DNA of 64,000 nucleotides from Gammaproteobacteria bacterium (lineage in GTDB: Bacteria; Pseudomonadota; Gammaproteobacteria; VBWC01): positions 75,572-139,571 of the forward strand of contig VBWC01000010.1 in NCBI GenBank assembly GCA_006218035.1, in the 5' to 3' direction. Made by a program: the position numbers and the translations under genes. Under the pieces are notes generated by a model that had not been told where the DNA came from, ran no database searches, and was given only the letters and a program-made list of their open reading frames with translations. This document shows positions 458-34,525 of the stretch, piece by piece (the stretch's first letter is position 1; each line of letters starts with the position of its first letter).

Positions 458-503
458 CTCTCTACAACCGCACGTCGTTATACGCGGACGATACTCGCTG
501 GCG

Positions 504-2526: not shown

Positions 2527-2571
2527 ACACTATCACCGCCAGTAATGTATCAGATGAGCCCAGTTTAGCGA

Positions 2572-3222: not shown

Positions 3223-3380
3223 TACGTCCTACCTCCAACAGGTAAATTTTTATCAGTTTCGTTCACAACCGCCGACCCGGACTCCGACCGCTGCTTTGCT
3301 ATCGGAGCATCCGAATCCCACCTTATCGATCCTCGACATATCATTCCGTGCGTCCCTCTCGTAAACACCTGTCAATCGTC

Positions 3381-4400: not shown

Positions 4401-4423
4401 CTTTACACATCATTTCCAATAGT

Positions 4424-6457: not shown

Positions 6458-6500
6458 ACTTTTATAATCCTGCTAAAACCTCAAAAAACAGCCGAGTTCA

Positions 6501-7832
6501 TCAGCGCGCTGTGATCATGACGTAGATCGTGGACAGCACCAGAAACAAAAACATGATCGGCAATCCCCAGCGCAAATAACTCTTGAAATCGAGTGTCGCA
6601 TTGCCGGACATCGTATCGCGCATTTCGGGGTGTGCGGCGACAAAACGTTCGAGATGCGAGGCCGCCACCGACCCCGCCGTCGCGCCGGTCAGCGACGCAG
6701 ACGACCCTGCCAGTATCCCCAGCGACAAGGCCCACCAGACGACCGGATCACCGGCCGAGAGATACATGTCACCGGCCACGGGTACCAGAAACGCTGTCGC
6801 CGCACCGGCATTCAAAAATATCGCCGCCACCGCCGCCAGCCACATCAACACAATCAATTGCAGCACTTCATAGCCACCGCTTACACCATAGATAAACCAC
6901 TCGAATCCCCGCAGCACACCGGCCGCCGCCAGGCCACCAACCATGACAAACAGGCCGGTGAAAAATAATATGTCGCCACCACCACAGGCGGAAAACAGTG
7001 AATCTCGATCAAAGCGTCCAAGCGACAGCGCCAGAAATCCGGTCCACAACGCTATCCACGCCGGGCTGAGACCAAAACGCTCCGCCACCAAAAACCCGAC
7101 CAGCGCAGCCGCCAGCAGCACCAACCCGACCTTCAGCAAGTACGGTTCATACGGTTGCTCGCGGACCGCGTCTCGCATCGCCGCCACGAGTTTGCCATTA
7201 CCTGGAGAGCGCCCGCCATCGATATCGATGTCGTTGCGTCGCCACTGAAAATACGCAAACATCGCCGCCAGCAGAATCAGGCACGGCACCATCATGCCGC
7301 TGATGAAATCGATGAAATGCAAATGAGCGGCCGACGCTATGATCATATTGGGAAAATCGCCGATCATTGTGGAAGCGCCACCAAGATTCGACGCGACAAC
7401 CTCTGCAATCAGTATCGGGATCGGATTGATTTCTATCTGGTGACAGATTGCCAGGGTCACCGGCAGGATTACCACCATCGCCGAGAGATTATTAACCAGC
7501 ATCGAAAGCCCGTATGTCCCGAGCGAGAAGATCACCAGCACCCACCAGCCGTTGCCCATCGAATGGACAGCCATACGTTTGGCGACCACGCCAAACACGC
7601 CTGATTTAGCGAGCAACGCCGACACCAGAGACATGCCAAATATCAGCGCCAGCGTTTCGAAATAAATAGCATCAATCGCCTGCGCAAGCGGGTAGATGCC
7701 GGACACAAGACCGAACAGCAACATTACACCGGCGCCGGCCATGACCGCCGTTTTCCGCTCGACCATACCGCGGAATATCAGCGTAAACACGCCGCCAAAT
7801 ATGGCGATGGCGATTAACGCATTGGCGCTCAT
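6501..7832 (-). CDS. mamN: MamN, NhaD/ArsB-type ion transporter family permease
   Basis: 443 aa polytopic permease of the CitMHS/ArsB fold. Start ATG overlaps the mamM stop by 1 nt. Position between mamM and mamO. Confidence 0.75.
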   Translation of the reverse strand: MSANALIAIAIFGGVFTLIFRGMVERKTAVMAGAGVMLLFGLVSGIYPLAQAIDAIYFETLALIFGMSLVSALLAKSGVFGVVAKRMAVHSMGNGWWVLVIFSLGTYGLSMLVNNLSAMVVILPVTLAICHQIEINPIPILIAEVVASNLGGASTMIGDFPNMIIASAAHLHFIDFISGMMVPCLILLAAMFAYFQWRRNDIDIDGGRSPGNGKLVAAMRDAVREQPYEPYLLKVGLVLLAAALVGFLVAERFGLSPAWIALWTGFLALSLGRFDRDSLFSACGGGDILFFTGLFVMVGGLAAAGVLRGFEWFIYGVSGGYEVLQLIVLMWLAAVAAIFLNAGAATAFLVPVAGDMYLSAGDPVVWWALSLGILAGSSASLTGATAGSVAASHLERFVAAHPEMRDTMSGNATLDFKSYLRWGLPIMFLFLVLSTIYVMITAR

Positions 7833-8866
7833 CAGTCCAGTACGCTCTCCAGATCTAGCGACAGATCCTTGCTGGGATTCGTTCCCGCAGCGGTGCTGCA
7901 GCCTTTCGACTTGCTGCAGCCCGCCGCCTGCTCGCAGCCAGCCGCGGCCTCCGAAGGAATCGCCGCCGCTTCCTGCACGACGCTCCGCACGGTTTCTGAC
8001 TGAAACTTGATCTGCACCAGCCCGAGATTGGGGATGCGCCGGCTCATATTGTGATGTACGGCGTCGGTAATACTGTGCGCTTCCTCAACGGTAATGTCAG
8101 GATCGACGCGCAATACGACCTCGGCCATGAGTTCCTGACCAATATATCGCGTGCGCAGGTGGTTGACCTCGTGCACACCTTTCGTCGCCTTCGCGATCTC
8201 GACGATCTTTTCCCGCATCGGCTTCGACACCGAACGGTCCATCAGCCCGCGATATGAATCCCGGAAAACCTCTCCGCCAAGGAACATCAGGTGCATAGTT
8301 TCGAACAATGCGACCAGCGTATCGATCCACGGCATACCCAAATAGTTCGCGCCGAGAATACCGACCGCCACCGCCGCCGACGAAGTCGCATCAGCGTGAT
8401 GGTGATGCGACAGGGTGCGTACCATCGGACTGTTGGCTTCGATGGCGACGCAGCGCGAATAGTAATACATGACCACATTGACGGCGATCGAGATCAACGC
8501 CGCCCATAACGCGATCAGGTGCGGTGTACGATGTGTGCTGCTGTCCAGCAGAAGTTGCAAGGCGTGGACAAAAAGCAGCGCGGTTATAAACAGAAACACG
8601 ACGCTGATCATCAGCGACAGAATGAATTCGATTTTTCCGTGACCATACGGATGATCACGATCCAGCGGCTGCCCGGAAACATTGACGCCGACGATCACCA
8701 GTATCGATGTCACGACATCCTTGGCCGAATACATCGCGTCGGCCAGCAGTGCGCTCGAGCCTGCGATCAGTCCGACGAAGCTCTTCATCAGCATCAGCGC
8801 CGAGTTGGTCACCAGACCGACCCAGCCGACTGATCTAAAACACCACAGACACTCTTTATATCTCAT
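7832..8866 (-). CDS. mamM: Magnetosome cation diffusion facilitator MamM
   Basis: 344 aa. N-terminus MRYKECLWCFRSVGWVGL and the blocks LADAMYSAKDV, DHPYGHGKIEFILS, TPHLIALWAALISI and NSPMVRTLSHHHHADATSS match my recollection of MamM (MRKSGCAVCSRSIGWVGL...). CDF family. Confidence 0.9.
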   Translation of the reverse strand: MRYKECLWCFRSVGWVGLVTNSALMLMKSFVGLIAGSSALLADAMYSAKDVVTSILVIVGVNVSGQPLDRDHPYGHGKIEFILSLMISVVFLFITALLFVHALQLLLDSSTHRTPHLIALWAALISIAVNVVMYYYSRCVAIEANSPMVRTLSHHHHADATSSAAVAVGILGANYLGMPWIDTLVALFETMHLMFLGGEVFRDSYRGLMDRSVSKPMREKIVEIAKATKGVHEVNHLRTRYIGQELMAEVVLRVDPDITVEEAHSITDAVHHNMSRRIPNLGLVQIKFQSETVRSVVQEAAAIPSEAAAGCEQAAGCSKSKGCSTAAGTNPSKDLSLDLESVLD

Positions 8867-9024
8867 CGCGACGTATCGCTCCGACTGCGAACACTCATTC
8901 AGCTACCAACAAACACCGGATCGTTGCATCTACGGTATTTGCAAAACGCAAAACACCGATCCAGCGAGCAACTGATCCCGTCCAACGCCGTCGTTATCCT
9001 GCCAACCGTTCCGCGGACAATGCG

Positions 9025-9309
9025 CTATTCTCGCTTGCGAGCCAATTCTTTTGGCCCCATGGTCGCGCGCATCAATTCCCTGTTGCGACCCGCACTCTTG
9101 CGGCGGCCTCCTTTGGCTGCCCTGAATACCACCGCCAGCAATGCGAACGCATAACCGACGATGAATGCCATCACCACAACAACAATCAATGGCACTTGAA
9201 CCGGCGGCCCGACCAATAAATACACCGGCACCATATCCATATTTTGTGACGCAAAGATGCCGATCGCGACAATGACTAAAAAGTAAAAAATTACCCTTAA
9301 AATGAACAT
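9025..9309 (-). CDS. mamL: MamL-like small two-TM magnetosome protein with basic C-terminal tail
   Basis: Track ORF 9025..9393, but the likely start is the internal Met (MFILRVIFYFLVIVAIG...) at 9307-9309, giving ~94 aa. Two hydrophobic helices then a KGGRRKSAGRNR basic tail. Lies between mamK and mamM. Confidence 0.6.
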   Translation of the reverse strand: MFILRVIFYFLVIVAIGIFASQNMDMVPVYLLVGPPVQVPLIVVVVMAFIVGYAFALLAVVFRAAKGGRRKSAGRNRELMRATMGPKELARKRE

Positions 9310-9761
9310 TACCGTGTTGAGCGCGCGCGTATCTTTTCTGTCACGGGTTAGTCTGTCAGTGCTGCCAGCGTCCGTCAACAACAACAGCAACAAAAAGAAA
9401 TACTTAATAACAACGATTGTTATTTATTTCTGTTCACTCAACACGAAACTGCGCGGACTGCCAGGTGAGAACTACCGGAGAGAAACGACGGGCTACAATG
9501 CATCGGCGTGGCAAACAATGAATTTACATTTTGTGCGCGACACACCACATGCAAACGTAATGAGAATAGTTTCAATAAACGAGAACTCGTTAAGGGTTTG
9601 GTGCTACAAGAATCTGCACGACAATACAAACCAGCGACGGTGATTTCACGGCAGCGGCAATGACCGTGATATGGGCACGCGTATTCGCGCCATTAACGGT
9701 TACAGCGCGTCGTTATCGCCGGTCCGGCGGGATATCTCCGGACAAATCGCAGTACGCACGG

Positions 9762-10811
9762 CTATTCCGGCGCACCGATCATCTCGCCCAGCTGGTTCCA
9801 GTACATCGGCGGGAGATCCATCGCCAGTTTGATGGCGCCTTCGGCGGCCGCAAAATTCGCATCGGCCACTTTTACCACGCGGGTATCGCCATACTCCGCC
9901 AGTTGATCGGCAATCATTTCGTCAAGGCCGTGGATCAAGGAACCACCACCCGCCAAAATAATGTTCTGCAAAACTGTGCCCTGCACCGACGGATCAAACG
10001 TACGGAGTAGCGCCGTCACGTTCTCAATGATATCGGGCACGATCGACTCGCAAACGCTGCGGACCTGATCCTGCACCGAATAGACTACCGGCCGGCCGTC
10101 CGCCCGGAAATTGACGTTAATGGTACCTGCCGGCGAATCACCGACGAAGGAATGTTGTTCCTTGATATGGGAGGCAATCAGGTTGGTCAACTGGATATCG
10201 GGATAGGCCTCCTGCAACTCCGCCTTCAACTTGCCATCCAGATAATCGCCCGCCTTATGCAGCGTGATCTGGTCTTCCGGTCCCGGCATCATGCCTTTCA
10301 GCGCCGCGATGTCGATAGTCCCGGCACCGATATCAATAACGATGGCATTCAGTAGAATATCGAGCCCGTAGGCGACCATAAACGGCTCAGAGACTACCAG
10401 CGCGGTATCCATGACTTCGTGCGCCATGCTCAGCAGCAACGTCTTGTCCGCTGCCGAGGCACGGGCGGGAATACCGATGACACCCGCAATTTCGTCGCCG
10501 TCTTCGGGCTGCGCCAGCTGGAGCACGTAGTCGATCAGGTGTCTGGCGACGTCCAGGTCGCGATCGCTCAATTCCTTTAACACGCCCTCGCCCAGCGGGT
10601 AACGCAGGTCCAGATAGGAATGCTTGTCCAGGGCCTCCTGCCCGACCGCATATGGTTTGCCCAGCAGCTTCACGCCAATCAGATCCTTGGGGTAACCCAC
10701 CACCGATCTCACCATCTCCCTGGTGCCACGACTGGTCATAATCGCGGTACGTGATGTTCCGAGATCAATCCCCAGCAGCAATTGATTATCGTTTTTATGC
10801 GCGGCGTTCAT
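9762..10811 (-). CDS. mamK: MamK, actin-like magnetosome filament protein
   Basis: 349 aa. Actin/MreB-fold phosphate motifs (LLLGIDLGTSRT, ILAGGGSLIHGL). Position after mamE and the mamJ-position gene. Confidence 0.85.
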   Translation of the reverse strand: MNAAHKNDNQLLLGIDLGTSRTAIMTSRGTREMVRSVVGYPKDLIGVKLLGKPYAVGQEALDKHSYLDLRYPLGEGVLKELSDRDLDVARHLIDYVLQLAQPEDGDEIAGVIGIPARASAADKTLLLSMAHEVMDTALVVSEPFMVAYGLDILLNAIVIDIGAGTIDIAALKGMMPGPEDQITLHKAGDYLDGKLKAELQEAYPDIQLTNLIASHIKEQHSFVGDSPAGTINVNFRADGRPVVYSVQDQVRSVCESIVPDIIENVTALLRTFDPSVQGTVLQNIILAGGGSLIHGLDEMIADQLAEYGDTRVVKVADANFAAAEGAIKLAMDLPPMYWNQLGEMIGAPE

Positions 10812-10870
10812 GTGTTATGTCCCCTGCTATCGGTTAACGTAATACCCATTCGCGATCGAGTTGTCGACGC

Positions 10871-12454
10871 CTACTCAGGCGTCGTCGATTTTTTTTCCTT
10901 GAAGAATCCACTGACCAATCTCGCGCCATCTTTCGCGCCCAACGCGATTCCGGATACTGACTGCCTGCCAACGTTCACTATCCGTCCGACTCCGTTGCCC
11001 AGCGCCTTGAAAACGCCTCTCCCCAAGCCCTCGATCGGTATCGTTTTCTCCAGTTTTTTTTTCCGCGGCACCTCACTCGAGGAGGATGTTGATGCCGTTG
11101 CCCGGCTGGCTGCTACGGTTGCCTGCGGCGTTGCACCGGCATCGAATGGCGCGCGCGGCTGACTGCCAACCTCCGCAGTACCGGTAACGACGGGGCGCTT
11201 CGGTATCGGCGCCCGTTGCTTCGGCCGAAATCGCGGTGATGGCTCCTCGGTGGCGCGGGAAACCGCACGTTGCCGCTCCGCCAGCCGCATCTTGAGACGG
11301 TCGGTATCCGAGATTCCGCCGGTATCCGGCTTCTTGACCACGAACTGACTTTCGGCAACCGCGCCGGCGAGCTCGCGTATCGCCTCGCCCAGTTCGTCGC
11401 GCTGAACCTCGCGAGCGGGACGGCTGACGGGCGAGGGCCGCGGCGCGAACGATGGGCGTTCCGGTTTGGGAGCGTCCACCGCTGGACGCGACGGGGCCTG
11501 AGCCTGCACATCCGGCGTCCGGCGCAACGGCGGCGGTGAAACCGACGCGTCCTGCGCCATCATCGGAACCGGGGCGGCGCCGCGCCGCGGTTCTGCCTCG
11601 CGTTTCGTGCTGCTCGCCGGTGCCGCAACCGGCGCGGGCTGTGTCACCGTCGCCTGTGGAACTGTTACGTGTGGCGCTGTCGCCCGCGACGCGATTACCT
11701 GCGGAGCCGCGCGGGACACGCCTGTGCTTTCCGGCATCGAGCGGCGCTTGAACGCCGGCGTCGGCCGGGTCGCCCACGGCGACGCCGCCATCAAATCGGT
11801 AAACTCCCCGGACACAGCCGATTTGTCACCAACGGGACGACGCCCATGATCGCCGCGCGTATCGTGCGCGGCGGCGGACGCCGCGCCCGTTCTCAGTCGG
11901 CTTGCCCACGGTGATGCATTCAGTAACTCGCCCAGACTCTGGCCGGTGGACACACTGGTTTCCGCCGGCATACGCTTGCTGTCAGGCTGCTCTTTCTGCA
12001 CTGCAGACGTCGTAGCAGCCTTTGTTGTAGATGCTGCGGCCGATGTTTTCGCGGTCTTTTTCTTTAGCGTCGCCGGACTGGGCTCGCTACCACCATGATT
12101 TGCAGGTTTTTTTGGCGCAGGCACAGCGGGGGGCGCGCTACGTTTTGGGTTGGCCCATGGCGAAGCGTCGAACACACTTACCCAGGATCCCTCAGGTTCC
12201 GCGACACCGGTCCGTTTTACCGTCGCTCTGCGATGAGCGCTGGATTGGATAGCAGAGCCCGTATTCTTCAGGGTCGCGGACGGCTTTCGGCTGACGGATG
12301 CCTTCGCAACGGCGCCCTTGGCAGCGACTGGCTTCGCCTTTTTCGTCGACGTACGAGCAACCGTCTTTTTGCGAGCGGCCTTCGGAGCTGTCTTTTTCGT
12401 AGCCTTGACTGTTCTTTTCTTCGCGGATGCGGCCCGCGACCTTTTTTTAGTCAC
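10871..12454 (-). CDS. Low-complexity Lys/Ala/Pro-rich protein in the mamJ position (putative MamJ analogue)
   Basis: 527 aa, GTG start. N-terminal ~60 aa extremely basic (MTKKRSRAASAKKRTVKATKKTAPKAARKK...). Then an Ala/Pro/Ser/Arg-rich region with three ASPWA motifs. Globular-looking C-terminus (GRGVFKALGNGVGRIVNVGRQSV). Sits between mamE and mamK exactly where mamJ lies in Magnetospirillum, but is basic rather than acidic. Confidence 0.45.
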   Translation of the reverse strand: MTKKRSRAASAKKRTVKATKKTAPKAARKKTVARTSTKKAKPVAAKGAVAKASVSRKPSATLKNTGSAIQSSAHRRATVKRTGVAEPEGSWVSVFDASPWANPKRSAPPAVPAPKKPANHGGSEPSPATLKKKTAKTSAAASTTKAATTSAVQKEQPDSKRMPAETSVSTGQSLGELLNASPWASRLRTGAASAAAHDTRGDHGRRPVGDKSAVSGEFTDLMAASPWATRPTPAFKRRSMPESTGVSRAAPQVIASRATAPHVTVPQATVTQPAPVAAPASSTKREAEPRRGAAPVPMMAQDASVSPPPLRRTPDVQAQAPSRPAVDAPKPERPSFAPRPSPVSRPAREVQRDELGEAIRELAGAVAESQFVVKKPDTGGISDTDRLKMRLAERQRAVSRATEEPSPRFRPKQRAPIPKRPVVTGTAEVGSQPRAPFDAGATPQATVAASRATASTSSSSEVPRKKKLEKTIPIEGLGRGVFKALGNGVGRIVNVGRQSVSGIALGAKDGARLVSGFFKEKKSTTPE

Positions 12455-12523
12455 CCCTACCTCCCGCGAACCTGGTTCGATTAGCTTATTTTCGGCTATG
12501 GAGATTTAGAACCGATTTATACA

Positions 12524-15223
12524 TCAAAGCGTGACAAAAATCTCGCGATTGTTGCGGTTAATCTTGAACAACACGTTGGGTTCGTTCGCCGCATTGTTTA
12601 TCGCGCGGTCCAACAACTCCGGCGTCCCTACCGGCTGATTGTTGATCAAAATAACCACATCCCGCTTCTGTATGCCGGCCTGCATGGCGCGCGAACCGCG
12701 GCGGACCTCCTTGACCTGTGCCCCCATCAGCGGCCCGACTCCCGGCAGTCCGCCGACCGCACCGGCCACCGGCTGCCGAACAACCTTAAGCTCCATCCCT
12801 AACCAGTTAACTTCGTTTCTAACGCCCCGGCCCGGTAGCGGCGCTGGCACCTGGTCGCCGTTCGCCACAATCATATCCAGCCGAACATTCTGACCCGCTC
12901 CGTTCCGATCGATATTCAGCCGCGGCCGATCGCCGGTCTGCAGCGCGCTCAGTTCACGCGCCAGCTGGTCCGGAGTACGAACCCGTTTTCCGTCGATTTT
13001 CAGGATGATATCACCCGCCACAAGGCCGGACGTTTCGGCCAGCGAACGCGGCACGACCGAACTGACAAACACGCCCTTGCCTACCGGCTGATTTATTTGC
13101 GTCGCGAGAAACGGCGATACCGGCATTACCGTTGCACCGAGTATCACACGCGCCTCCGGTTCCGCGGCGGCCAGAGTATCGACAGGCATTCCCGGCATCT
13201 GCGCCATGCCTGCCTGTCCCATCGGGACCGGCGGCGCCATCATCATGCCCTGCCCGTTGTTAGCTGGCATCATCGCGTTCGGCGCCACGCCACGGTTTTC
13301 GGGGCGCGGGTCCTGATTGACGTTCATGCCCGCCACGCCCTGATTCATCCCCGCCATACCGGGCATCCCGCCATTCCGGTTCTCGAGACGGCGATCCTGG
13401 TTGATGTTCATGCCAATCATGTCCTGGCCGGCCATACCCTGGCCCATGCCCATCATGCCGGGCGCCATGGCGCCATTCTGGTTTTCAAGACGGCGGTCCT
13501 GATTGACGTTCATTGCCAACGTCGCCGGCGGCCGCGCGAACTGATATTGCGGCATCGCGATCGCCATCGCGTTAACGCCGCCCGCATTAATACCCTGCTG
13601 CGCCGGGAGCATCTGGTGACAGATCGTGCAGTTCATCCGTTCACGGCCATCCGTATGTGGCGCTGGTGTACCCGCGATAATCGCCGGGCCAGGATCCGGA
13701 CGGATTTGCTGCGCAATCTGCTGCATTACCGGCTGCGTACCCATCATCATGCCGATCTGGTTCATACCTTGCTGCGCCGGGAGCATCTGGTGACAGATGG
13801 TGCAGTTCATCCGCTCACGGCCATCCGTATGCGGCGCCGGTGTGCCGGCGATGATTGCCGGGCCCGGGTCTGGCTGTATTTGCCGGGCGATCTGTTGCAT
13901 CATCGGCTGCGTCGCAACCACATTGGCGCCGGCTTGCTGGCCGCCAACGATCTGATGACACATCTGGCAATCCATACGCTCGCGGCCATCCGTATGCGGC
14001 GACCTTGTTCCGGCCGCAAGCGTCGGACCGACCTGGTTGCCCGCCGGTTGCATCGCGATCTGCTGCATCGCCACCAGCTGCGCCATCGGCTGCTGATTCG
14101 CCATCGCGTCCGGAAATACCGCTGGCAACGCCACCTCGGTCTGCACAAACTGCCTGACCCGGTTCGATGGAATCGCGAAACCGACACCGGAGAATGCGCC
14201 GGTCGGCGTGTATATCGCAGTGTTGATACCTATCACTTCGCCCTGATCATTCACCAACGGGCCGCCGGAGTTGCCCTGATTCACGGCGGCATCCGTCTGA
14301 ATCAAATCACCGTGGGTGACCCCCTCGATGGTCAGCGATTTACGCAGACCCGAAACAATGCCGCGGCTGACCGTCTGATCGAGACCAAACGGGCTGCCGA
14401 ACGCCAGCACGGATGACGCCACCGGAATCTTCGTGCTGTCGCCCAGCTTCGCGGCGCGCAACGGCAACCGGGAATTTATCTTCAGCAGCGCGAGATCGAT
14501 ACCTTCGTCCAGCCTGACCATCTGCGCGAGATAACGCTGCGTACCCGAGTCATGGAATACGGTCACATAGATTGCCGCGGCACCACGCACCACGTGAAAA
14601 TTCGTAATGACATAACCGTCCGAGTGGACGATGACGCCGGAGCCGATACTTTCGTTGCCGGTGCCGGTTGCCGGGCTGGTAAACTGCACGCCCGCCGATG
14701 CCGCACCAGGTGCAACGGTTTCCTGTGCCGCCACCGACGCCGAGCGCGTGACGTTGATATTCACGACACTGAAACGCATCTGTTCCGCCACAGGCGCAAA
14801 CCGGCTCGCGGCCAGCATCATCGGATCACCGGGCGGAATGCCGACCGGCATACTGGCCGCCGGCGCCAGGGCCTCGGGGGTCCAGCGCGGCTGCATTTGC
14901 TGTTGCGGGAAATTGCCACCGCCATTCGGCATCGGCTGCGCGTTGGCAAACGCGGGCATCGGGTCACCCATGCCCGGCATCGAATTCATCGCGTTGGCGG
15001 GCATCTGGTTTTGCATTGCGAACGCCGGCATCGCCGGCTGAGCACCGGCTACATTGTTAGCCGCCGGTCTGGTTGACAGATCGACATGTATGCCCTTGTC
15101 GAAGAAATTAACGTACCAGTAGCTGCCGAGCACGATGAGAATCGCGGCTGCCCCGAGGACGTAGAGGTAACGGCGCGTTTCCAGGCCGCACCGGTCGGAG
15201 ATACCGAAATTAAGCATTCCCAT
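12524..15223 (-). CDS. mamE: MamE, HtrA-like serine protease with PDZ domains and three magnetochrome CXXCH motifs
   Basis: 899 aa. N-terminal TM helix. Trypsin-like catalytic motifs (VITNFHVV, DLALLKI, GNSGGPLVND). Three CXXCH motifs (MDCQMCHQIVGG and two copies of MNCTICHQMLPAQQ). Two C-terminal PDZ-like regions. Internal tandem repeats. Confidence 0.85.
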   Translation of the reverse strand: MGMLNFGISDRCGLETRRYLYVLGAAAILIVLGSYWYVNFFDKGIHVDLSTRPAANNVAGAQPAMPAFAMQNQMPANAMNSMPGMGDPMPAFANAQPMPNGGGNFPQQQMQPRWTPEALAPAASMPVGIPPGDPMMLAASRFAPVAEQMRFSVVNINVTRSASVAAQETVAPGAASAGVQFTSPATGTGNESIGSGVIVHSDGYVITNFHVVRGAAAIYVTVFHDSGTQRYLAQMVRLDEGIDLALLKINSRLPLRAAKLGDSTKIPVASSVLAFGSPFGLDQTVSRGIVSGLRKSLTIEGVTHGDLIQTDAAVNQGNSGGPLVNDQGEVIGINTAIYTPTGAFSGVGFAIPSNRVRQFVQTEVALPAVFPDAMANQQPMAQLVAMQQIAMQPAGNQVGPTLAAGTRSPHTDGRERMDCQMCHQIVGGQQAGANVVATQPMMQQIARQIQPDPGPAIIAGTPAPHTDGRERMNCTICHQMLPAQQGMNQIGMMMGTQPVMQQIAQQIRPDPGPAIIAGTPAPHTDGRERMNCTICHQMLPAQQGINAGGVNAMAIAMPQYQFARPPATLAMNVNQDRRLENQNGAMAPGMMGMGQGMAGQDMIGMNINQDRRLENRNGGMPGMAGMNQGVAGMNVNQDPRPENRGVAPNAMMPANNGQGMMMAPPVPMGQAGMAQMPGMPVDTLAAAEPEARVILGATVMPVSPFLATQINQPVGKGVFVSSVVPRSLAETSGLVAGDIILKIDGKRVRTPDQLARELSALQTGDRPRLNIDRNGAGQNVRLDMIVANGDQVPAPLPGRGVRNEVNWLGMELKVVRQPVAGAVGGLPGVGPLMGAQVKEVRRGSRAMQAGIQKRDVVILINNQPVGTPELLDRAINNAANEPNVLFKINRNNREIFVTL

Positions 15224-15228
15224 CGGCG

Positions 15229-15432
15229 CTACTCTTTGTCGCTGACAAGATCATCGTCGATCTTTTTGCCGGTACGGAGCTGCGAAACACCCGCACCGAG
15301 CGCGACAACACCGAAGACAATCAGGACGAGTGGCGCCAGTCCACGCAGCAACTCGGCAAACGACCACCACCATACCGTCAGACCCCATAAACCGAACGAT
15401 ACGCCAAGCAATCCGATGATGATGTTATTCAT
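15229..15432 (-). CDS. mamI: MamI, small two-TM magnetosome membrane protein
   Basis: Track ORF 15229..15483, but an internal Met at 15430-15432 (MNNIIIGLLGVSFGLWGLTVWWWSFAELLRGLAP...) has a GGAG SD 9 nt upstream and gives ~67 aa. The WWW/FLRG two-TM signature resembles MamI. First gene of the minus-strand operon in this window. Confidence 0.65.
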   Translation of the reverse strand: MNNIIIGLLGVSFGLWGLTVWWWSFAELLRGLAPLVLIVFGVVALGAGVSQLRTGKKIDDDLVSDKE

Positions 15433-15483
15433 GGTTGTTTCTCCAAATCCTGTGAGGCCCTGGAGAGACTGCGAGACAGCCAA

Positions 15484-16201
15484 GGCGTGGCCATACGGTA
15501 CGGCGATGAATTTTCGGTAGTGGCATGGTTTATCGTGTCTTTACCGTCGCGGTTACTCGACCTGTACGCGGACGGCAGAAACCACTCGATCTGCCCGATC
15601 GCAACGCGGCGAAAACTGCTTCAGCACTCTCCAACCGATTTTTGTATTTTGTATACGTTAAGTCACGAGTTCGTTCCATCATAAGCACATTCCACGGGCC
15701 TGTAAACAACGCAAGCTCGCGCAATTTCTAAAGAAAAGTGCGAACCATTTTCAATCGCAATTAACTTTCGTCACGGCGGGTCGTTTGACGGATGACGGAA
15801 TTCCAATCGATCACCGTTCGCCCGCAATCCGCCTGCCAAGACGGCAGGAAAATTGTGCCGGCGTCGATGCGACACGCGGCGCCAATAACCTTGCGATCGG
15901 TTGGTTTGAAGAAACCCACTGTTTTGGTAACCTATGCCGGCAACTCTTGATAGATGCATGAAACAGGCGTAGCCGCAATCACTGCAATCAGGATCCCGCA
16001 AGCGGTCGGGCCGCACCGCGGAACACGCAAGTATGGGCATCGTGACGTTCTCAATGTCTCTGCCGCACCCCCGCCGGGAAACGACGCGGTACGCGTGTGG
16101 CGATAATCACAGGCGACCCCGTTGATCAAGAACCATGGTTATCCCCGGACAACACGAACGGTGCCGTACGTTGACGGCGCATTCACCAGGAGGTCGGCGA
16201 T
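15484..16201. promoter_or_regulatory. Divergent intergenic region between mamI (minus) and mamA-like (plus); presumed mamAB-operon promoter region
   Basis: 718-bp non-coding gap with AT-richer stretches (15640-15770) in an otherwise GC-rich context. Strong SD (caggagg) before the 16202 ATG. Confidence 0.4.
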
Positions 16202-16891
16202 ATGAGTTCGGATCACCACGAAACACCCATCGGCGAAATGACGCTCTTCGACAGAGTGGAGTTGTATTCGCAATATGGCGCGCGGGTTGCCAAACACGTC
16301 GTGGTTAACGTCGCGTCAGGCGTCCGCTCTGCATTTCGGTTCAACGGCAGCCTGCGCGAAGGATTATTCCTTGAAAAAGGCATCAAATATACGCGCAGCG
16401 GATTTTACAGCAAGGCCATTCCAATTCTGGAAAAAGTGCTCAAGGACATACCGGACGACCCCGAAATACTCGTGCATCTGGGGCTGTGCTACACCAAGGT
16501 CGGCCAGTCGGACCATGGCCTGGACCTGTTAAAAAAGGCGCACGAAACCAGCTCGGGCTCGGTCAAAACGGCGATGATCCTGGGCATCACCTATCTCGAT
16601 GCGGAGGATTACCAGAATGCCGCGGACTACCTCGAACTCGCTGCCGCAAAAAAACCCGAAGACTACAAGATTCGCTACAAACTCGGCGTGTGTCACGACA
16701 ACCTGAAACAGCATGACCGGGCCATCGACTGGTTTGAGCAGGCGCTCGAGCTGCGGCCCGATATTCCCAAATTGCACCGCGCGCTCGGGTTTTCCTACGA
16801 GATCAAAGGCAAGCGCGCCAAGGCAATCGAGCATTTCCAGCGTGCCACCGCGCTCGAGGAACAGGGCACCGGGGTCGACCCCCGGCGCTGA
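16202..16891 (+). CDS. MamA paralog, TPR-repeat protein
   Basis: 229 aa. Full-length similarity to the MamA at 2572..3222 (e.g. YKLGVCHDNLKQHDRAIDWFEQALELRPDIPKLHRALGFSYE versus YKLGVAYDHLKQHDKAIECFKAALELRPNESKLHRAIGFAYE). Transcribed divergently from mamI. Confidence 0.75.
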   Translation: MSSDHHETPIGEMTLFDRVELYSQYGARVAKHVVVNVASGVRSAFRFNGSLREGLFLEKGIKYTRSGFYSKAIPILEKVLKDIPDDPEILVHLGLCYTKVGQSDHGLDLLKKAHETSSGSVKTAMILGITYLDAEDYQNAADYLELAAAKKPEDYKIRYKLGVCHDNLKQHDRAIDWFEQALELRPDIPKLHRALGFSYEIKGKRAKAIEHFQRATALEEQGTGVDPRR

Positions 16892-16955
16892 TCCCCGCTA
16901 TAATCCGCCTGTTCTCGGTCTCTGCACTATTCCGGAGGTAACGAATTTGACTCAC

Positions 16956-17993
16956 ATGGCGCGGCCTACACCTCTTGTCGGACTCACGATGCTGCTTGGC
17001 GTCGCGCTGTGCGTCGGTCCCGGGCAAAACGCGACGGCCGAAGAGGTCAACCTGTATTCGGCGCGCAAGGAAGAATTGATCAAGCCGCTGCTCGATAAAT
17101 TCACTGCCAAAACGGGGATCAAGGTCAATCTCGTCACCGGCTCGGCCGATGCGCTGCTGAAGCGCCTGGAAACCGAGGGCAAGAACACGCCGGCGGATAT
17201 GTTCATTACCACCGATGCCGGGCGCCTGCACCGCGCCAAGGCGGCGGGCGTGCTGCAAGCGATATCGTCGCCAGTGCTCGAGAAGAATATTCCTGCCGAA
17301 TTCCGCGATGCCAAGGGATACTGGTTCGGCCTGTCGCTGCGCGCGCGGCCGATCATGTACGCCAAGGGCCGGCTGGATCCGGCGGAATTATCGACCTATG
17401 AGGCGCTCGCCGACGCGAAGTGGAAAGGTCGCATCTGCGTCCGTTCCTCGGAAAACATCTACAACCAGTCCCTGGTCGCCTCGATGATCGTCGCCAACGG
17501 TGAAGAAGCGACCGAAAAATGGGCGGAAGGCCTGGTACGCAACCTGGCGCGGCCACCGCGCGGTGGTGACGAAGATCAGATCAAGGCGGCCGCTGCAGGC
17601 CAGTGCGACATCGCCATTGCAAACACCTATTACCTGGGCGGCATGTTGCATTCCAGAGACCCGGGCGAGCGCGCAGCGGCAGAAAAGATCGCCATCTTCT
17701 GGCCGAATCAGAAAGACCGCGGCGTTCACGTCAACGTCAGCGGTGCCGGTGTGACCCGCTGGGCGCCGCATCGTGATACCGCGGTCAAACTGCTCGAATT
17801 CCTGATCACCGACGAGGCGCAGGAATGGTATGCGCAGGTGAATAACGAATATCCGGCCAAACCCGGCATTCCCGAAAGCCCGGCGCTGATCAAGGCATGG
17901 GGCCGATTCAAAGCTGATACTATAAGCCTGTCACAGCTGGGGGAGTACAACGCGGCAGCAGTCAAACTCATGGACCGGGCCGGATGGAAGTAG
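16956..17993 (+). CDS. fbpA: Fe(III) ABC transporter periplasmic substrate-binding protein (FbpA/AfuA family)
   Basis: Start moved to the ATG at 16956 (MARPTPLVGLTMLLGVALC... signal peptide). The upstream part of track ORF 16713.. overlaps the mamA-like gene. ~345 aa; typical FbpA motifs (LYSARKEELIKPL, ADMFITTDAG, YYLGGM). Confidence 0.8.
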   Translation: MARPTPLVGLTMLLGVALCVGPGQNATAEEVNLYSARKEELIKPLLDKFTAKTGIKVNLVTGSADALLKRLETEGKNTPADMFITTDAGRLHRAKAAGVLQAISSPVLEKNIPAEFRDAKGYWFGLSLRARPIMYAKGRLDPAELSTYEALADAKWKGRICVRSSENIYNQSLVASMIVANGEEATEKWAEGLVRNLARPPRGGDEDQIKAAAAGQCDIAIANTYYLGGMLHSRDPGERAAAEKIAIFWPNQKDRGVHVNVSGAGVTRWAPHRDTAVKLLEFLITDEAQEWYAQVNNEYPAKPGIPESPALIKAWGRFKADTISLSQLGEYNAAAVKLMDRAGWK

Positions 17994-18034: not shown

Positions 18035-19780
18035 ATGGAAAAGGCACCGTTACCAAACCGACCGAAGCATCGCCCTGTCCGGCACCCGCGCTGGCGGCGT
18101 TACCTGCCGAATCCATGGGTGGCCGGAACCGTCGCGATCGCGACCTTGATCGCATTGCCGGTCATTACCGTTACAAGTTTCATCTTCGTTCCCGCCGGCG
18201 AGGTCTGGGATCATCTCGTTGCCACCGTCCTGCAGGACTACATCGTCAACTCCCTGATATTAATGGTGGGTGTCGCGGCCGGCACGCTGATCATCGGCGT
18301 CAGCACCGCCTGGCTGACGACCATGTGCAGCTTTCCCGGCCGCCGCATTTTCGAGTGGGCACTATTGCTGCCGATGGCATTCCCGGCCTACATCATCGCC
18401 TACACCTATACCGGCCTGCTGGATTTTGCCGGACCGGTGCAGACCGCCTTGCGTGAGTGGTTTGCCTGGTCGTACGGCGATTACTGGTTTCCCGAGCTCC
18501 GCTCGATCGGCGGCGCCATCGTCATGTTGTCACTGGTGCTGTATCCGTACGTATACCTGTTGTCGCGCGCGGCGTTTCTCGAGCAGTCGTCGCACGCGAT
18601 GGACGCGAGCCGCATGCTCGGCTGCGGCCCGTGGCGCAGTTTCCTGCTGATATCGTTGCCCTCGGCGCGTCCTGCGATCATCGCCGGTCTGTCACTCGCG
18701 CTGATGGAAACCCTGGCCGATTACGGCACCGTCCAGTATTTCGGTGTCAGTAATTTCACGACAGGGATATTCCGCACCTGGTTCGGCCTCGGCGACGCTG
18801 CCGCCGCCGCGCAGTTGTCCGCACTGTTGATGACGTTCGTGTTCGCGCTGATCGTGATCGAACGCTGGTCACGCAGCCGGGCACGCTATCACATGACCGG
18901 CCAGCGCTCGACACCGTTGCCAACATACCGGTTGCGTATCGGCAAGACCTGTCTGGCGTGGCTCGCGTGCGGCCTGCCTTTGACGCTCGGTTTTTTGTTA
19001 CCCGGCGGCCTGCTGGTCAGTTGGTCCATGGCGACGGCGGCATATGTGGTGGATGACCGGTTCTGGCAACTCGTGTTCAACAGTGTCACGCTCGCTGGTT
19101 CCGCGGCGCTGTTCGCGTTGTTGCTGGCGCTATACATGGCCTACAGCAAACGCCTTACCGGCGGCATGGGAACCAACTCGGCGGTACGACTGGCCGCCAT
19201 GGGTTATGCGATACCGGGGACCGTGATCGCGGTCGGCGTGATGCTGCCGTTCGGCTGGTTTGATAACACGATTGATGCATGGGCACGCGAGACCTTCGGC
19301 GTTTCCACCGGGCTGCTGCTCAGCGGTACATTGTTCGCCGTTATGTTTGCCTACATGGTGCGGTTTCTCGCCGTCTCGCTGCAGACCGTTGAGGCCGGAC
19401 TCGGCAAGATCCGGCCATCGATGGATGAAACAGCACGCTCGCTCGGGCATCGCCCGCTCGAGGTACTGGGCAGGATACATCTGCCGCTGATGCGGGGCAG
19501 CGTGTTGACCGCGATATTACTGGTGTTCGTTGACGTCATGAAAGAGCTGCCGGCGACCTTGATCTTGCGGCCGTTCAACTTCAACACGCTGGCGGTGCGC
19601 GCCTACGAACTGGCGACAGACGAACGGCTGATGGATGCGTCCTCCGCCGCGGTCGCCATCGTGGCAGCGGGCATACTACCGGTGATCCTGCTGAGCCGTT
19701 CGATTACACGTTCCCGATCTGCGCTGCAGGGCAGAACAGCGATCACGGAAACTGCCAGGATGGCGGCCCAGCCGGCATAG
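18035..19780 (+). CDS. fbpB: Fe(III) ABC transporter permease with duplicated permease domains (FbpB family)
   Basis: 581 aa. Two BPD-transporter-like permease halves, each with an EAA-like loop (ALMETLADYGT and VDVMKELPATLILRP). Confidence 0.8.
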   Translation: MEKAPLPNRPKHRPVRHPRWRRYLPNPWVAGTVAIATLIALPVITVTSFIFVPAGEVWDHLVATVLQDYIVNSLILMVGVAAGTLIIGVSTAWLTTMCSFPGRRIFEWALLLPMAFPAYIIAYTYTGLLDFAGPVQTALREWFAWSYGDYWFPELRSIGGAIVMLSLVLYPYVYLLSRAAFLEQSSHAMDASRMLGCGPWRSFLLISLPSARPAIIAGLSLALMETLADYGTVQYFGVSNFTTGIFRTWFGLGDAAAAAQLSALLMTFVFALIVIERWSRSRARYHMTGQRSTPLPTYRLRIGKTCLAWLACGLPLTLGFLLPGGLLVSWSMATAAYVVDDRFWQLVFNSVTLAGSAALFALLLALYMAYSKRLTGGMGTNSAVRLAAMGYAIPGTVIAVGVMLPFGWFDNTIDAWARETFGVSTGLLLSGTLFAVMFAYMVRFLAVSLQTVEAGLGKIRPSMDETARSLGHRPLEVLGRIHLPLMRGSVLTAILLVFVDVMKELPATLILRPFNFNTLAVRAYELATDERLMDASSAAVAIVAAGILPVILLSRSITRSRSALQGRTAITETARMAAQPA

Positions 19781-19792: not shown

Positions 19793-20863
19793 ATGGATGC
19801 TGAATATATTAAAGTGACGCTAATGCCTCTGCTGCAAGTCAACGTCGTCGAGATCCGTTACAAGAATACGGTGGTCACCTCTGACCTCTCGTTTCATGTT
19901 AACGAAGGCGAGATTGTCAGCCTGCTCGGGCCGAGCGGCTGCGGCAAGACCAGCATACTGCGCGCGATCGCGGGGTTTGAGCCTGTCCGCGAGGGCGAAA
20001 TTTTTCTTGCCGATCAATTAATGTCCTATCCGGGCTACGTCGTTCCGCCGGAGCAACGCCGCCTCGGCATGGTGTTCCAGGACTACTCGCTGTTTCCGCA
20101 CATGACGATACAGAAAAACATCTGCTTCGGCTTGCGCGGTCTGAGCAACCGCGCACAAATTCGCGTCACCGACGAAATGTTGACCATGGTCGGATTGCCT
20201 GGCTACAACAAGCGCTATCCGCACGAACTTTCCGGCGGGCAGCAGCAACGTGTCGCGCTCGCGCGCGCTCTCGCCGTGAAACCGCGCCTGCTGCTGATGG
20301 ACGAACCGTTCTCAAGCCTGGATGTCGAACTGCGCGCACGCCTGAGCTTCGAGGTCCGGGAAATACTCAAGGAGCAAAAGATCACCGCGATTCTCGTGAC
20401 GCATAATCAGCTTGAGGCGTTTGCGATGTGTGACATGGTCGGCGTGATGAACCACGGACGTATCTTGCAGTGGGACACGCCGTTCAATCTGTATCACGAG
20501 CCGGCCGACCGCTTTGTCGCCACCTTTATCGGCCAGGGCGTATTCCTGCAGGGCACTGTACTGACGCCGGATTCCGTGGACACCGAAGCAGGAGTTATCC
20601 AGGGCGACGCGCCACTGGAGTGGCCCGCCGGTACATCGGTCGATGTCCTGGTACGACCGGATGACGTGGTACCCGACGAGCACGGACCGCTGCACGGCAA
20701 GATCGTCAACAAGGTCTTCAAGGGCGAGGACGTGATGTATACGCTGCAATTGCCGAACGGCGCCAGCGTAATGTCCGTATTTCCGAGCCACGAACAATAT
20801 GACATCGGCGCCATGATCAATGTGCGCATCGCGGCGGATCACGTCGTCGCATTCGCCCGCTAA
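19793..20863 (+). CDS. fbpC: Fe(III) ABC transporter ATP-binding protein (FbpC family)
   Basis: 356 aa. Walker A GPSGCGKTS, signature LSGGQQQRVALARAL, Walker B LLLMDEPFSSLD, and a C-terminal TOBE-like domain. Confidence 0.8.
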   Translation: MDAEYIKVTLMPLLQVNVVEIRYKNTVVTSDLSFHVNEGEIVSLLGPSGCGKTSILRAIAGFEPVREGEIFLADQLMSYPGYVVPPEQRRLGMVFQDYSLFPHMTIQKNICFGLRGLSNRAQIRVTDEMLTMVGLPGYNKRYPHELSGGQQQRVALARALAVKPRLLLMDEPFSSLDVELRARLSFEVREILKEQKITAILVTHNQLEAFAMCDMVGVMNHGRILQWDTPFNLYHEPADRFVATFIGQGVFLQGTVLTPDSVDTEAGVIQGDAPLEWPAGTSVDVLVRPDDVVPDEHGPLHGKIVNKVFKGEDVMYTLQLPNGASVMSVFPSHEQYDIGAMINVRIAADHVVAFAR

Positions 20864-20905: not shown

Positions 20906-22078
20906 TCAGCGCAGGTAACCGTGCTCCAGATTCAGGATTGAATTGCGCTCGCCGATGTTGTTGTTGAACGTCGTCTCCAGACTGAACGCAATGCCCAGCT
21001 GGATAACGTTATCTTCCCCGCCACCGTATAACGCGCCGTCATAACCGGTATGGATATACTGCGCGATCAGATCGGTGCCCTGCCCGATCCGGCATACGAC
21101 CGCCGGCGCGATACTCCACTGGGCGGCATCGGTGATATCGGAATACTCCTTCCGCGCCACCGTCATGGACGCCTGCCAGCGCGTCAGCAGATTCGGCCGC
21201 AACGTATGCCGCACCGACGCCACCAACGCCGTTGACCGCGCGCGCGCCTGATTGGCCATCGCGTTGACGGTGCTGTTGATATCCGTCGCCGTCATGCCGT
21301 CAATACCGGCGTTGTGAATCGCCTGAAATGCTGCCGACCAGTTGGACGCCGGATTCATATTGAGATTGAACTCGACGCCGGCGATCAACGCGTTCATCCA
21401 CTCGTCACCCGCGGTCGTCGCTACCTTCTGTCGGTCCAGCAGGACGCCGGCTTTCGTCAGACGCATCACCAGACGACGGTGTTCCGCCTGCTCATGGACA
21501 AAACCCAATCCAACACTGTCAAATCCATCCGGCGCCGCAAGCCCTGCGCTATTGCCGCGTGTTCCCGCCCAGACAGACGCGCTCTGAATACCGCCGCCGG
21601 GAAACCATTTCGCTGTAAACATCGGCGCGTGCAGCTGATCGAACTCCGCGTTCGACGAGGCATTGCCAACGTGGGTCACCGCCAGCAGGTCTTCGTCACG
21701 TATGGTCGGAAATGTGATCAGGGAATTGCGCAGATCCATGCGGCCGATACTGATCTCATAGCCCTCATCCCAGAGGAACGCATAGACGCGGTGAAACTCC
21801 ACGGTGTGCTCGTTGTCCTCGAACCCGAGCACCGCTCCCGCCACGCCGGACGTATACAGCCGCTTGTCAAAGCGTAATAAAAGCGAAGAATCGTCGATAT
21901 CGATCTCGTCCGCGCGGGCGGGCTTCGAATCGAGATCGACGTTGTCGAGCGTGCTGATCACGCGGCCCGCGACCGTGATACGCGGCATCACTTCGCGGTC
22001 CACTTCCAGCGCCTGCGCCTGCTGAAAAAACAACGCAGCGAGCAGCCCGGCCAACGTGATCGTGGTAACAATATTCAT
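20906..22078 (-). CDS. Putative outer-membrane beta-barrel protein (CopB-like position downstream of the multicopper oxidase)
   Basis: The internal Met at 22076-22078 gives a signal peptide (MNIVTTITLAGLLAALFFQQAQA). The alternative upstream start at 22141 would overlap the MCO. Alternating amphipathic strands; ~390 aa. Confidence 0.4.
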   Translation of the reverse strand: MNIVTTITLAGLLAALFFQQAQALEVDREVMPRITVAGRVISTLDNVDLDSKPARADEIDIDDSSLLLRFDKRLYTSGVAGAVLGFEDNEHTVEFHRVYAFLWDEGYEISIGRMDLRNSLITFPTIRDEDLLAVTHVGNASSNAEFDQLHAPMFTAKWFPGGGIQSASVWAGTRGNSAGLAAPDGFDSVGLGFVHEQAEHRRLVMRLTKAGVLLDRQKVATTAGDEWMNALIAGVEFNLNMNPASNWSAAFQAIHNAGIDGMTATDINSTVNAMANQARARSTALVASVRHTLRPNLLTRWQASMTVARKEYSDITDAAQWSIAPAVVCRIGQGTDLIAQYIHTGYDGALYGGGEDNVIQLGIAFSLETTFNNNIGERNSILNLEHGYLR

Positions 22079-22091
22079 GGCTGCGCTCCTG

Positions 22092-23459
22092 TCACTGATC
22101 GACCGATACGGCCGGACGGTAGGTCGGTTCAAAGTCCTCATAGGCCAGCATCGTCACCATACCCCCCGGATAGATCCCGTTGTTTCTGGCGTGCGACCCC
22201 TGGTGGTCGTGAAACGCCCAGTACCCGGGATTGTCACCATGAATCATGATGTCGTAGGTACCACCCGGCTCGACATGCACCGTGTTGAGTTTCAGCGGCA
22301 TCGGCAGATCATGCCCGTCCTGCGCGACCCAGAAAAAATCGTGGCCGTGCAGATGCAGGTGATAACTTTCACCGCTGGCATTGATCAGGCGCACGCGTAT
22401 CCATTCGTCTTTCTTGATGCGGAGCGCACTGGTCGCCGGATGCGCCTTGCCGTTAATACCGAAGAAATTGGGCCTGATCGGAATGCCGGATGAGCGGCTC
22501 TCCAGGTACGGCGGTACGTACTTGCCGCTTTTGTAGGCAGCGACAAATTCCTCGTAGCTGCGAAAGAAACCGTGCGTCATCGGGTCCAGGCGCCCCTGCG
22601 CCATCAGCGTGTTGACCTGCTTCATACCCTCGAGCAGACCGTTCATCTCCTCGCGCGCGAAGTGGGTGTCCCATGCCTCGAGCATCAGCGTGTATTCGCG
22701 CGTGTAGGGATACTGCTCCTTCAGGCGCTCATGTTTACGCTGGATGATGAATGCGCCGTGCATGCCGTGACCCATGTGCAACGGCGTACCCCAGTGACAG
22801 TGGTACCAGTGCGTACCGGCCGGTTTCGCCTGGAAACGATAGACAAAGGTATGGCCGGGATGGACCGGATCCTGATTGAGCATCGGCACACCGTCCATCG
22901 TGTACGGGACGTTGACGCCATGCCAATGTATCGTGTGCATCTCTTCGGTGTTGTTCAGGAAATTCACCTTGATCCAGTCACCCTCGGTGACGTTGAATAC
23001 CGGGCCCGGCACGCTACCGTTGAAGGCAAACATATGCACTTTCACACCCGGCAGGATTTCGTGCTCGATGATGCGCACATCGATATCGAACACCTGATAG
23101 TCGACTTCATGATCGGCCGGCGACCCGGGCGGCTCGATGACCATGCCGGTCGGCATGTGATGTCCCTCCATGAATATCATCGAGCCATACTCCGACGCAC
23201 CGTTCCCCATGGAGGCATGGTCCATCATCGGGGGCCCGTCCGGCAGCGACGGCGCCGCCGGCATCGCGCCCTGACCGGCAGCAGGATTCATCTCGTGACC
23301 GCCGTGAGTCATCTCGCCCGCCACCGCCCGGCCGGCCACCACACCGCCGGCAAGTAACGCCGTGGTGCGCAAAAACTGCCGTCGTGATATCGACCCGGCT
23401 GGCTCGTCGGTCACCTCGGTAACCGTCGCCCTGCCCATCCTCGCAGACCCGTTATTCAT
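22092..23459 (-). CDS. Tat-secreted two-domain multicopper oxidase (cupredoxin family; CopA/ferroxidase/NirK-like)
   Basis: 455 aa. Twin-arginine signal (SRRQFLRTTALLAGG). Met/His-rich N-terminal segment. Cu-site motifs HWHG, YHCHWGTPLHMGHGMHGAFII (T1 Cys), HLHLHGHDF and HDHQGSH. Confidence 0.7.
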   Translation of the reverse strand: MNNGSARMGRATVTEVTDEPAGSISRRQFLRTTALLAGGVVAGRAVAGEMTHGGHEMNPAAGQGAMPAAPSLPDGPPMMDHASMGNGASEYGSMIFMEGHHMPTGMVIEPPGSPADHEVDYQVFDIDVRIIEHEILPGVKVHMFAFNGSVPGPVFNVTEGDWIKVNFLNNTEEMHTIHWHGVNVPYTMDGVPMLNQDPVHPGHTFVYRFQAKPAGTHWYHCHWGTPLHMGHGMHGAFIIQRKHERLKEQYPYTREYTLMLEAWDTHFAREEMNGLLEGMKQVNTLMAQGRLDPMTHGFFRSYEEFVAAYKSGKYVPPYLESRSSGIPIRPNFFGINGKAHPATSALRIKKDEWIRVRLINASGESYHLHLHGHDFFWVAQDGHDLPMPLKLNTVHVEPGGTYDIMIHGDNPGYWAFHDHQGSHARNNGIYPGGMVTMLAYEDFEPTYRPAVSVDQ

Positions 23460-31854: not shown

Positions 31855-31912
31855 CTCATTCTCCTGTCACCCCGATGTGGCACGCTGCCGAAACCGCCTT
31901 CATCGGGATCGA

Positions 31913-34480: not shown

Positions 34481-34525
34481 GTCGGCTCTCCTTGTTGTTC
34501 AGGCGATGCGGTACACACGCCCGCG

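Follow-up and report, generated by a model that had tools for sequence, protein, structure and literature searches.

A predicted fast-diverging MamA paralog encoded beside FutABC-type iron importer genes and divergently from a magnetosome operon

We examined a 64,000-nucleotide stretch of contig VBWC01000010.1 from a Gammaproteobacteria bacterium (assembly GCA_006218035.1), hereafter the window, and describe in it a second gene of the MamA type, which we call mamA2. The gene lies outside the magnetosome operon, is transcribed divergently from mamI, and has genes for a predicted iron importer downstream of it on its own strand. On balance, we favor the view that MamA2 is a functional, fast-diverging paralog of MamA, acting as an accessory coat protein or adaptor with altered self-assembly and tied to iron import. 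The genes concerned are listed below by window position.

16202-16891, + strand: mamA2, encoding a 229-amino-acid (aa) diverged MamA paralog with five tetratricopeptide repeats (TPRs), an N-terminal helix, and a 12-residue N-terminal extension
16956-17993, + strand: futA, encoding an iron-binding periplasmic protein of the FutA/IdiA type that has a signal peptide
18035-19780, + strand: futB, encoding a fused double-domain ATP-binding cassette (ABC) permease of 581 aa (BPD_transp_1)
19793-20863, + strand: futC, encoding an ABC ATPase with a TOBE domain (ABC_tran and TOBE_2)

Sequence, profile scores, and predicted fold mark MamA2 as a genuine member of the MamA family rather than a generic TPR protein. 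A preliminary description of this DNA had stated that the 229-aa protein could be aligned over its full length with the in-operon MamA (2572-3222), and this was borne out: BLASTP returned 45% identity and 66% positives (E 1e-63) in a gapless alignment of 208 residues, pairing residues 13-220 of MamA2 with residues 5-212 of MamA. The pattern quoted as common to the two, YKLGV..D.LKQHD.AI..F..ALELRP...KLHRA.GF.YE, was found in both. As TPR proteins are mutually similar, a scan across families is the relevant control for identity. The NCBIfam MamA model (NF040959) matched MamA2 from end to end (profile 1-204 of 204) at 183.1 bits (E 4e-54), against 67.7 bits for the runner-up family, PrsT, which puts the MamA model 115 bits ahead of any other TPR family. 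In agreement with the MamA-type assignment made earlier, MamA2 grouped among proteobacterial MamAs; it is 30-45% identical to these (38% to MamA of AMB-1) and 21% identical to non-MamA TPR proteins. A further MamA, protein P0002, is encoded in the operon of a member of another phylum (mamI-mamA-mamQ-mamB) and is 27-28% identical to both of the copies studied here. Since it is more distant than the proteobacterial MamAs, MamA2 falls clearly within the MamA family. P0002 (L022:7736-10315, GCA_964425145.1) was initially taken as a TPR outgroup; it is a MamA of the deep-branching cluster type with a 40-residue N-terminal extension.

The structural comparisons agreed with this assignment. The best natural matches of MamA2 in the PDB were MamA of AMB-1 and MSR-1 (3as4, E 2e-37), and the sole match ranking above them was an engineered consensus-TPR protein. 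An AlphaFold2 model (predicted local distance difference test score 85.6) contained 11 helices, comprising a long N-terminal helix (H15-47) and 10 TPR helices, and thus predicts for MamA2 the five-TPR, hook-shaped architecture of the ~215-aa cytoplasmic MamA. When this model was compared with the PDB using Foldseek, the best 14 matches were all MamA chains, with template modeling scores (target) of 0.82-0.94 and root-mean-square deviations of 1.4-3.6 Å, or 1.4-2.2 Å on Magnetospirillum MamA chains. The gene itself does not occupy the slot between mamP and mamQ, which is held by the copy at 2572-3222, but lies outside the operon.

The junction between mamI and mamA2 recurs in independent assemblies. 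An identical 229-aa protein is encoded on seven contigs, and the four that we inspected, from four samples (SRR8863435, SRR8863439, ERZ27284375, and SRR8438314), all carried mamI and mamA2 back to back followed by the binding-protein gene, with mamE and the remaining transporter genes visible where the contig was long enough. The same arrangement was present in the GenBank metagenome-assembled genome (MAG) "Gammaproteobacteria bacterium nzgw581" (locus L002), whose MamA2 is 95% identical, and in a more distant Logan contig (L001), whose MamA2 (protein P0001) is 75% identical. Because four separately assembled contigs and two related lineages share it, misassembly of the junction, which had been named earlier as something that would undo the finding, is excluded.

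The three genes downstream of mamA2 are assigned by sequence to a FutABC/IdiA-type iron ABC importer. The best PDB relatives of the futA product were Synechocystis FutA1 (2pt1, E 2e-110) and Trichodesmium IdiA/FutA (6g7n, E 7.5e-108), along with FutA2 and FbpA proteins, and its Tyr-Tyr iron-ligand motif ("ANTYY") was aligned. The paralog had been described as heading the magnetosome cluster in the place of mamH; it is instead the first gene of a conserved mamA2-futA-futB-futC block, which is retained in all three lineages together with its divergent orientation relative to mamI. Beyond futC, L001 differs in lacking the multicopper oxidase gene and the 390-aa gene of the window, indicating that the block itself is conserved beside mamI and not the wider neighborhood. 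Within the block, mamA2 and futA lie on the same strand, 64 nt apart, with no predicted terminator between them, making co-transcription plausible. Directly after futC, at 20906-23459 on the − strand, the window encodes the multicopper oxidase (455 aa) and a 390/411-aa protein; a ferroxidase would be a fitting neighbor for a ferric importer, but L001 has neither gene at this position.

The reading frame of mamA2 is intact in all three lineages, and its pattern of substitution marks it as functional but diverging fast. By the Nei-Gojobori method, the dN/dS of mamA2 was 0.11-0.15 against L001 (dS ~1.3-1.5) and 0.26 against nzgw581, while that of the in-operon mamA over the latter genome pair was 0.017, with dS ~0.12 for both genes, a difference of ~15-fold. 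In amino acid changes between the window and nzgw581, this amounts to 1 in MamA and 13 in MamA2. The dN/dS of mamA2 was the highest among the mam genes compared. Values of 0.11-0.26 indicate purifying selection, though much weaker than that acting on the in-operon mamA.

We defined paralog-specific sites as positions where conservation among 14 proteobacterial MamAs is 75% or more but both MamA2 sequences compared are altered. This yielded 16 positions, six of them in the N-terminal part (residues 32-65): R32H, F41V (where Phe is invariant elsewhere), D48N, R57L, A64T, and K65R. Position 57 corresponds to Arg50 of AMB-1 MamA and is Leu in all three MamA2 sequences. In Magnetospirillum, a salt bridge between Arg50 and Asp79 stabilizes the N-terminal domain of MamA, and its disruption abolishes homo-oligomerization and mislocalizes the protein (PMC4482739); the MamA proteins of Mbav and BW-1 also do without this salt bridge (PMC4482739). 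MamA2 keeps the salt-bridge Asp (D86, equivalent to Asp79), D166 (equivalent to Asp159), and the highly conserved fifth TPR (ALELRP...KLHRA.GF.YE). Its 12-residue N-terminal extension, MSxDHExPIGE, is conserved across the three lineages.

In a neighbor-joining tree, the three MamA2 sequences formed a clade with 100% support on a long branch beside the window's own MamA. The best match of MamA2 anywhere is this co-resident MamA (44-45%). The resident MamA itself shares more identity with orthologs from alphaproteobacterial MAGs (47-52%) than with MamA2. In view of the observed rate acceleration, the simplest reading is that mamA was duplicated within the lineage and that one copy then diverged fast. 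Searches for wider relatives met the abundance of TPR proteins. A genome scan with MamA2 turned up a single close relative (L002) among 13 loci, the remaining 12 being generic TPR genes; word-indexed searches with MamA2, MamA, and a 12-sequence profile returned few MamA relatives; and an exhaustive profile search of a representative library returned 288,903 proteins at E ≤0.001 and was dominated by giant multi-TPR proteins, so that only 8 MamA-sized matches were usable.

The region between mamI and mamA2, with its regulatory features, can be set out as follows.

15433-16201: divergent mamI-mamA2 intergenic region, 769 bp if mamI starts at ATG 15432 or 718 bp if it starts at TTG 15483
15678-15706, − strand: sigma-70-like promoter facing mamI, with −35 TTTACA (15706-15701), a 17-nt spacer, and −10 TATGAT (15683-15678)
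15739-15759: 21-bp palindrome TGCGAACCATTTTCAATCGCA (TGCGA-N11-TCGCA), just upstream of the mamI promoter
15906-15933, + strand: tentative weak mamA2 promoter, TTGAAG, 16-nt spacer, TAACCT, proposed from conservation
16186-16191, + strand: Shine-Dalgarno sequence AGGAGG, ending 10 nt before the mamA2 ATG
16875-16904, + strand: promoter-like TCGACC-N18-TATAAT lying across the mamA2 stop codon

The divergent orientation of mamA2 and mamI reported in the preliminary description stands, and its figure of 718 bp for the gap holds for the TTG start. The ATG is the mamI start given by other gene callers and by the MamI profile. Of the divergent promoter region proposed there, only the half directed toward mamI shows a conserved sigma-70-like promoter, both hexamers of which lie within blocks kept in L002 and L001; for mamA2, a promoter can be placed only tentatively. 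The segment 15883-15934, matching L001 2101-2152, is the only aligned island for the + strand between the palindrome and the ribosome-binding site. The latter sits in a block, ACCAGGAG..CGGCG, that is kept in L001 and L002. The palindrome TGCGAACCATTTTCAATCGCA is identical at 20 of 21 bases in L001, whose proteins are only ~75-87% identical, and it is a candidate regulator site for the magnetosome operon. Some 110 nt adjoining the mamI ATG are likewise conserved with L001 and could represent a leader or a 17-codon N-terminal extension from TTG 15483, the latter being possible because two synonymous differences are visible within them. Starting at TTG 15483 would add 17 residues (MAVSQSLQGLTGFGETT, 15433-15483, − strand) to MamI, a peptide kept in L001 with two synonymous changes. 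An Rfam search found no match in 15300-17100. Two other candidates were discarded. A small intergenic gene, called in L001 as a 106-aa open reading frame (ORF), is non-coding, as gaps in the alignment have lengths not divisible by three and the ORF is interrupted in the window; and a Fur box matching at 12-13 of 19 positions ~60 nt upstream of mamA2 in L002 is degenerate in the window and absent from L001.

On the other side of this region lies a mamAB-type operon of the Magnetospirillum type (504-15483, − strand), in the order mamI-mamE-527-aa protein-mamK-LapA ORF-mamM-mamN-mamO-mamP-mamA-mamQ-mamR-mamB. All of its genes are on the − strand.

15229-15432 (ATG) or to 15483 (TTG), − strand: mamI, the first gene of the operon (NF040963, 82 bits; cutoff 80)
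12524-15223, − strand: mamE
10871-12454, − strand: gene for a 527-aa protein in the mamJ position
9762-10811, − strand: mamK (480 bits)
Between mamK and mamM, − strand: 94-aa LapA-domain ORF
7832-8866, − strand: mamM
6501-7832, − strand: mamN (560 bits)
4424-6457, − strand: mamO
3381-4400, − strand: mamP
2572-3222, − strand: mamA, the in-operon ortholog, between mamP and mamQ (NF040959, 228.3 bits; cutoff 200)
1681-2526, − strand: mamQ
1433-1684, − strand: mamR
504-1436, − strand: mamB

Two proteins of the operon have unusual features. MamE (12524-15223) is unusually long at 899 aa and contains three near-identical magnetochrome-containing repeats (…AGTPAPHTDGRERMNCTICHQMLPAQQG…) as well as repeated "NxNQDRRLENxNG" segments. 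The 527-aa protein in the mamJ position (10871-12454) matched no family in Pfam or NCBIfam. Unlike the acidic MamJ, it is a basic protein with abundant Ala, Pro, and Ser, and it carries the motif "ASPWA" three times. Farther out, the chromosomal flank at 29443-47774 encodes a copper P-type ATPase, a CusABC-like resistance-nodulation-division efflux system, a LysR regulator, form I RuBisCO, and a von Willebrand factor A-domain (CbbO-like) protein, a gene content that points to an autotrophic, metal-exposed host. We saw no compositional boundary around the mamA2-futABC block, nor between the magnetosome cluster and this flank.

The canonical order in Magnetospirillum is mamH-mamI-mamE and onward, and the preliminary description had reported that mamH was missing here. 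This was correct insofar as no major facilitator superfamily (MFS) gene lies directly upstream of mamI on the same strand in the window, and Pfam and NCBIfam searches of window ORFs, covering most of those of MamH size (380-480 aa), gave no match to MFS or MamH families. The gene has nonetheless not been lost. Through a MamR look-up we reached the region downstream of mamB in nzgw581 (contig JAHFRU010000001.1, locus L021). In this genome MamR is identical and MamA 99.5% identical to those of the window, and window positions 1-503 align to L021 at 88% nucleotide identity. Past mamB, L021 reads mamS, mamT, a third cation diffusion facilitator (CDF) gene, Mms6-like, MmsF-like, MamH, a second MamI, and a c-type cytochrome. 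The last three belong together as a distal unit of the cluster, which would fall to the left of window position 1:

L021:15742-17901: MamH (15742-17052), second MamI (17114-17323), and c-type cytochrome

This MamH is a 436-aa MFS protein that, at 659 bits, exceeds the MamH equivalog cutoff of 300, and its gene lies ~4.6 kb past mamB, that is, ~4-5 kb left of window position 1. The second MamI scores 85 bits (cutoff 80) and is 71% identical to MamI1, while the 382-aa product of the third CDF gene falls below the MamB, MamM, and MamV cutoffs. The presence of MamH and a second MamI at the distal end in the near-identical nzgw581 indicates that mamH has moved rather than been lost, and from this sister genome we strongly infer the same relocation in the window's own strain. 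Consistent with its presence elsewhere in the present cluster, mamH is reported by one study to be present in every one of its 29 magnetotactic strains of Pseudomonadota (PMC9840458); another publication concerns PmamH (PMC8547445). The distal MamH-MamI2 unit suggests that the head of the operon was once duplicated in tandem or rearranged. Duplication of the promoter along with it was rejected, as the DNA upstream of L021 mamH has no similarity to that upstream of the window's mamI, and only the mamI coding parts align (73%).

Taken together, these data allow a scheme to be postulated. The mamA2 gene may have originated as a copy of the resident mamA, a gene of the proteobacterial type, while the cluster was being rearranged; a second mamI and a third CDF gene are present in this cluster too. 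The MamA2 protein would act in the cytoplasm as a TPR scaffold, either entering the MamA coat or modifying it, under altered rules of self-assembly. The fixed adjacency to futABC would then couple iron import to magnetosome formation, through either co-expression or an adaptor role, and such an adaptor would act at the inner membrane, where magnetosomes invaginate. Such coupling would have a parallel in the MamA-like gene beside feoAB in magnetotactic cocci. A bolder version, in which MamA2 is a dedicated adaptor, physical or regulatory, linking the FutABC importer to nascent magnetosomes, as one instance of a recurrent module of MamA paralog and importer that evolved at least twice, we regard as improbable.

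Several observations weigh against an iron-linked, functional MamA2. At 183.1 bits, the protein scores below the NF040959 equivalog cutoff of 200 bits. Its pairing with the resident MamA has a bootstrap value of only 26%, so the duplication may be older or the gene may have come in laterally. The gene is confined to three lineages among those found, and Joint Genome Institute (JGI) metagenomes scanned with a MamA2-specific alignment yielded no further copy, just a secreted TPR protein that is unrelated. The placement of the mamA2 promoter is tentative, and the Fur-like site is not conserved, so that Fur control of mamA2 is unsupported. Moreover, the conserved TATAAT at the mamA2 stop codon, shared with L001 and L002, implies that futABC may be transcribed alone, which weakens the case for co-expression.

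This last site also lends itself to the foremost alternative, namely that MamA2 is a role-less, drifting leftover of a partial cluster duplication and that futABC adjoins it by accident, with futA seeming to own a conserved promoter-like site. The other duplicates in the cluster (the second MamI and the third CDF protein), the dN/dS of 0.26 at the top of the compared mam genes, and published descriptions of mamAB-2 remnants (PMC9840458) fit a leftover as well. A drifting gene, however, sits poorly with a frame intact in three lineages at a dN/dS of 0.11-0.15 when dS is ~1.3-1.5, with the conservation of both a strong ribosome-binding site and a novel N-terminal extension, or with the retention of mamA2-futABC while the genes past futC vary, and we consider this explanation unlikely, if the best of the alternatives.

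Less probable still is that MamA2 works solely for FutABC, perhaps as a TPR protein that partners FutB or FutC in the cytoplasm, with no role in the coat. The same-strand arrangement with futA across a 64-nt gap without a predicted terminator, the strict synteny with futABC, and the loss of the self-assembly Arg would all suit such an accessory. The protein nevertheless retains the N-terminal helix, D166 (the D159 equivalent), and the fifth TPR, the most conserved part of MamA, and mamA2 is found only beside magnetosome clusters. To our knowledge, no TPR partner of FutABC systems has been described, which also counts against it. Finally, an artifact, whether a generic TPR protein carried by inflated similarity scores (the 288,903 profile matches) or a chimeric assembly in a MAG with mamH lost at the junction, is ruled out by the 115-bit margin of the MamA model, by best structural matches that are MamA, by a junction shared among four inspected contigs and two further lineages, and by a mamH accounted for elsewhere in the cluster.

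The locus bears on two unsettled matters, the route of iron into the magnetosome lumen and the role of MamA, and offers a natural experiment on both. A protein that keeps the MamA fold without the self-assembly Arg, and evolves ~15 times faster than the in-operon copy, reveals which parts of the MamA surface tolerate change. The position of mamA2 beside an iron importer, echoing the MamA-like gene and feoAB of the cocci, offers a concrete, testable way of connecting iron supply with the TPR coat. The move of mamH together with a second mamI bears on which mam genes count as core in Pseudomonadota, and is a caution that the absence of a gene should not be read from a single window.

Our literature search found no report of a MamA paralog beside a FutABC-type importer, and the feature appears to be undescribed, though the genome is public: GenBank contains the window's MamK and RuBisCO sequences under a MAG with the label Gammaproteobacteria (KAF0191449/TND04356). 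The preliminary description had called a second MamA copy unusual; the paralog is real, but its kind was already known, from the MamA-like genes of Magnetococcales and from BW-1 and HK-1. Compared with MamA proper (Mms24/Mam22; NF040959; PDB 3AS4, 3AS8, 3VTX, and 4XI0), MamA2 is alike in its length, five TPRs, and N-terminal helix, and differs in being encoded outside the operon on the opposite strand, in scoring below the family cutoff, and in the replacement of Arg50 by Leu and of Phe by Val41, 14 further changes, and 12 extra residues. In BW-1 and HK-1, mamA is present twice, in two clusters (PMC4482739). These duplicates and the mamAB-2 remnants (PMC9840458) resemble the present case in giving more than one mamA-family gene per genome through cluster duplication, but in BW-1 and HK-1 each copy resides within its own mamAB-type cluster (magnetite or greigite), whereas mamA2 is solitary and outside the operon. 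An importer linked to the magnetosome cluster is likewise known from feoAB1/feoABm of Magnetospirillum and other magnetotactic bacteria; here it is of the FutA/IdiA ABC type, and no feoAB was seen in the window or L021. The MamA-like genes of Magnetococcus marinus MC-1 and Magnetofaba australis IT-1 adjoin FeoB and FeoA, and their products are ~30% identical to MamA over ~57% coverage (PMC3934378). Like mamA2, these are second, diverged MamA-type TPR genes, additional to the in-operon mamA and situated beside iron-uptake genes. They differ in this lower published identity and coverage and in having feoAB as neighbors, whereas MamA2 is 45% identical to MamA over its full length, groups with the MamA of its own genome, and neighbors FutABC.

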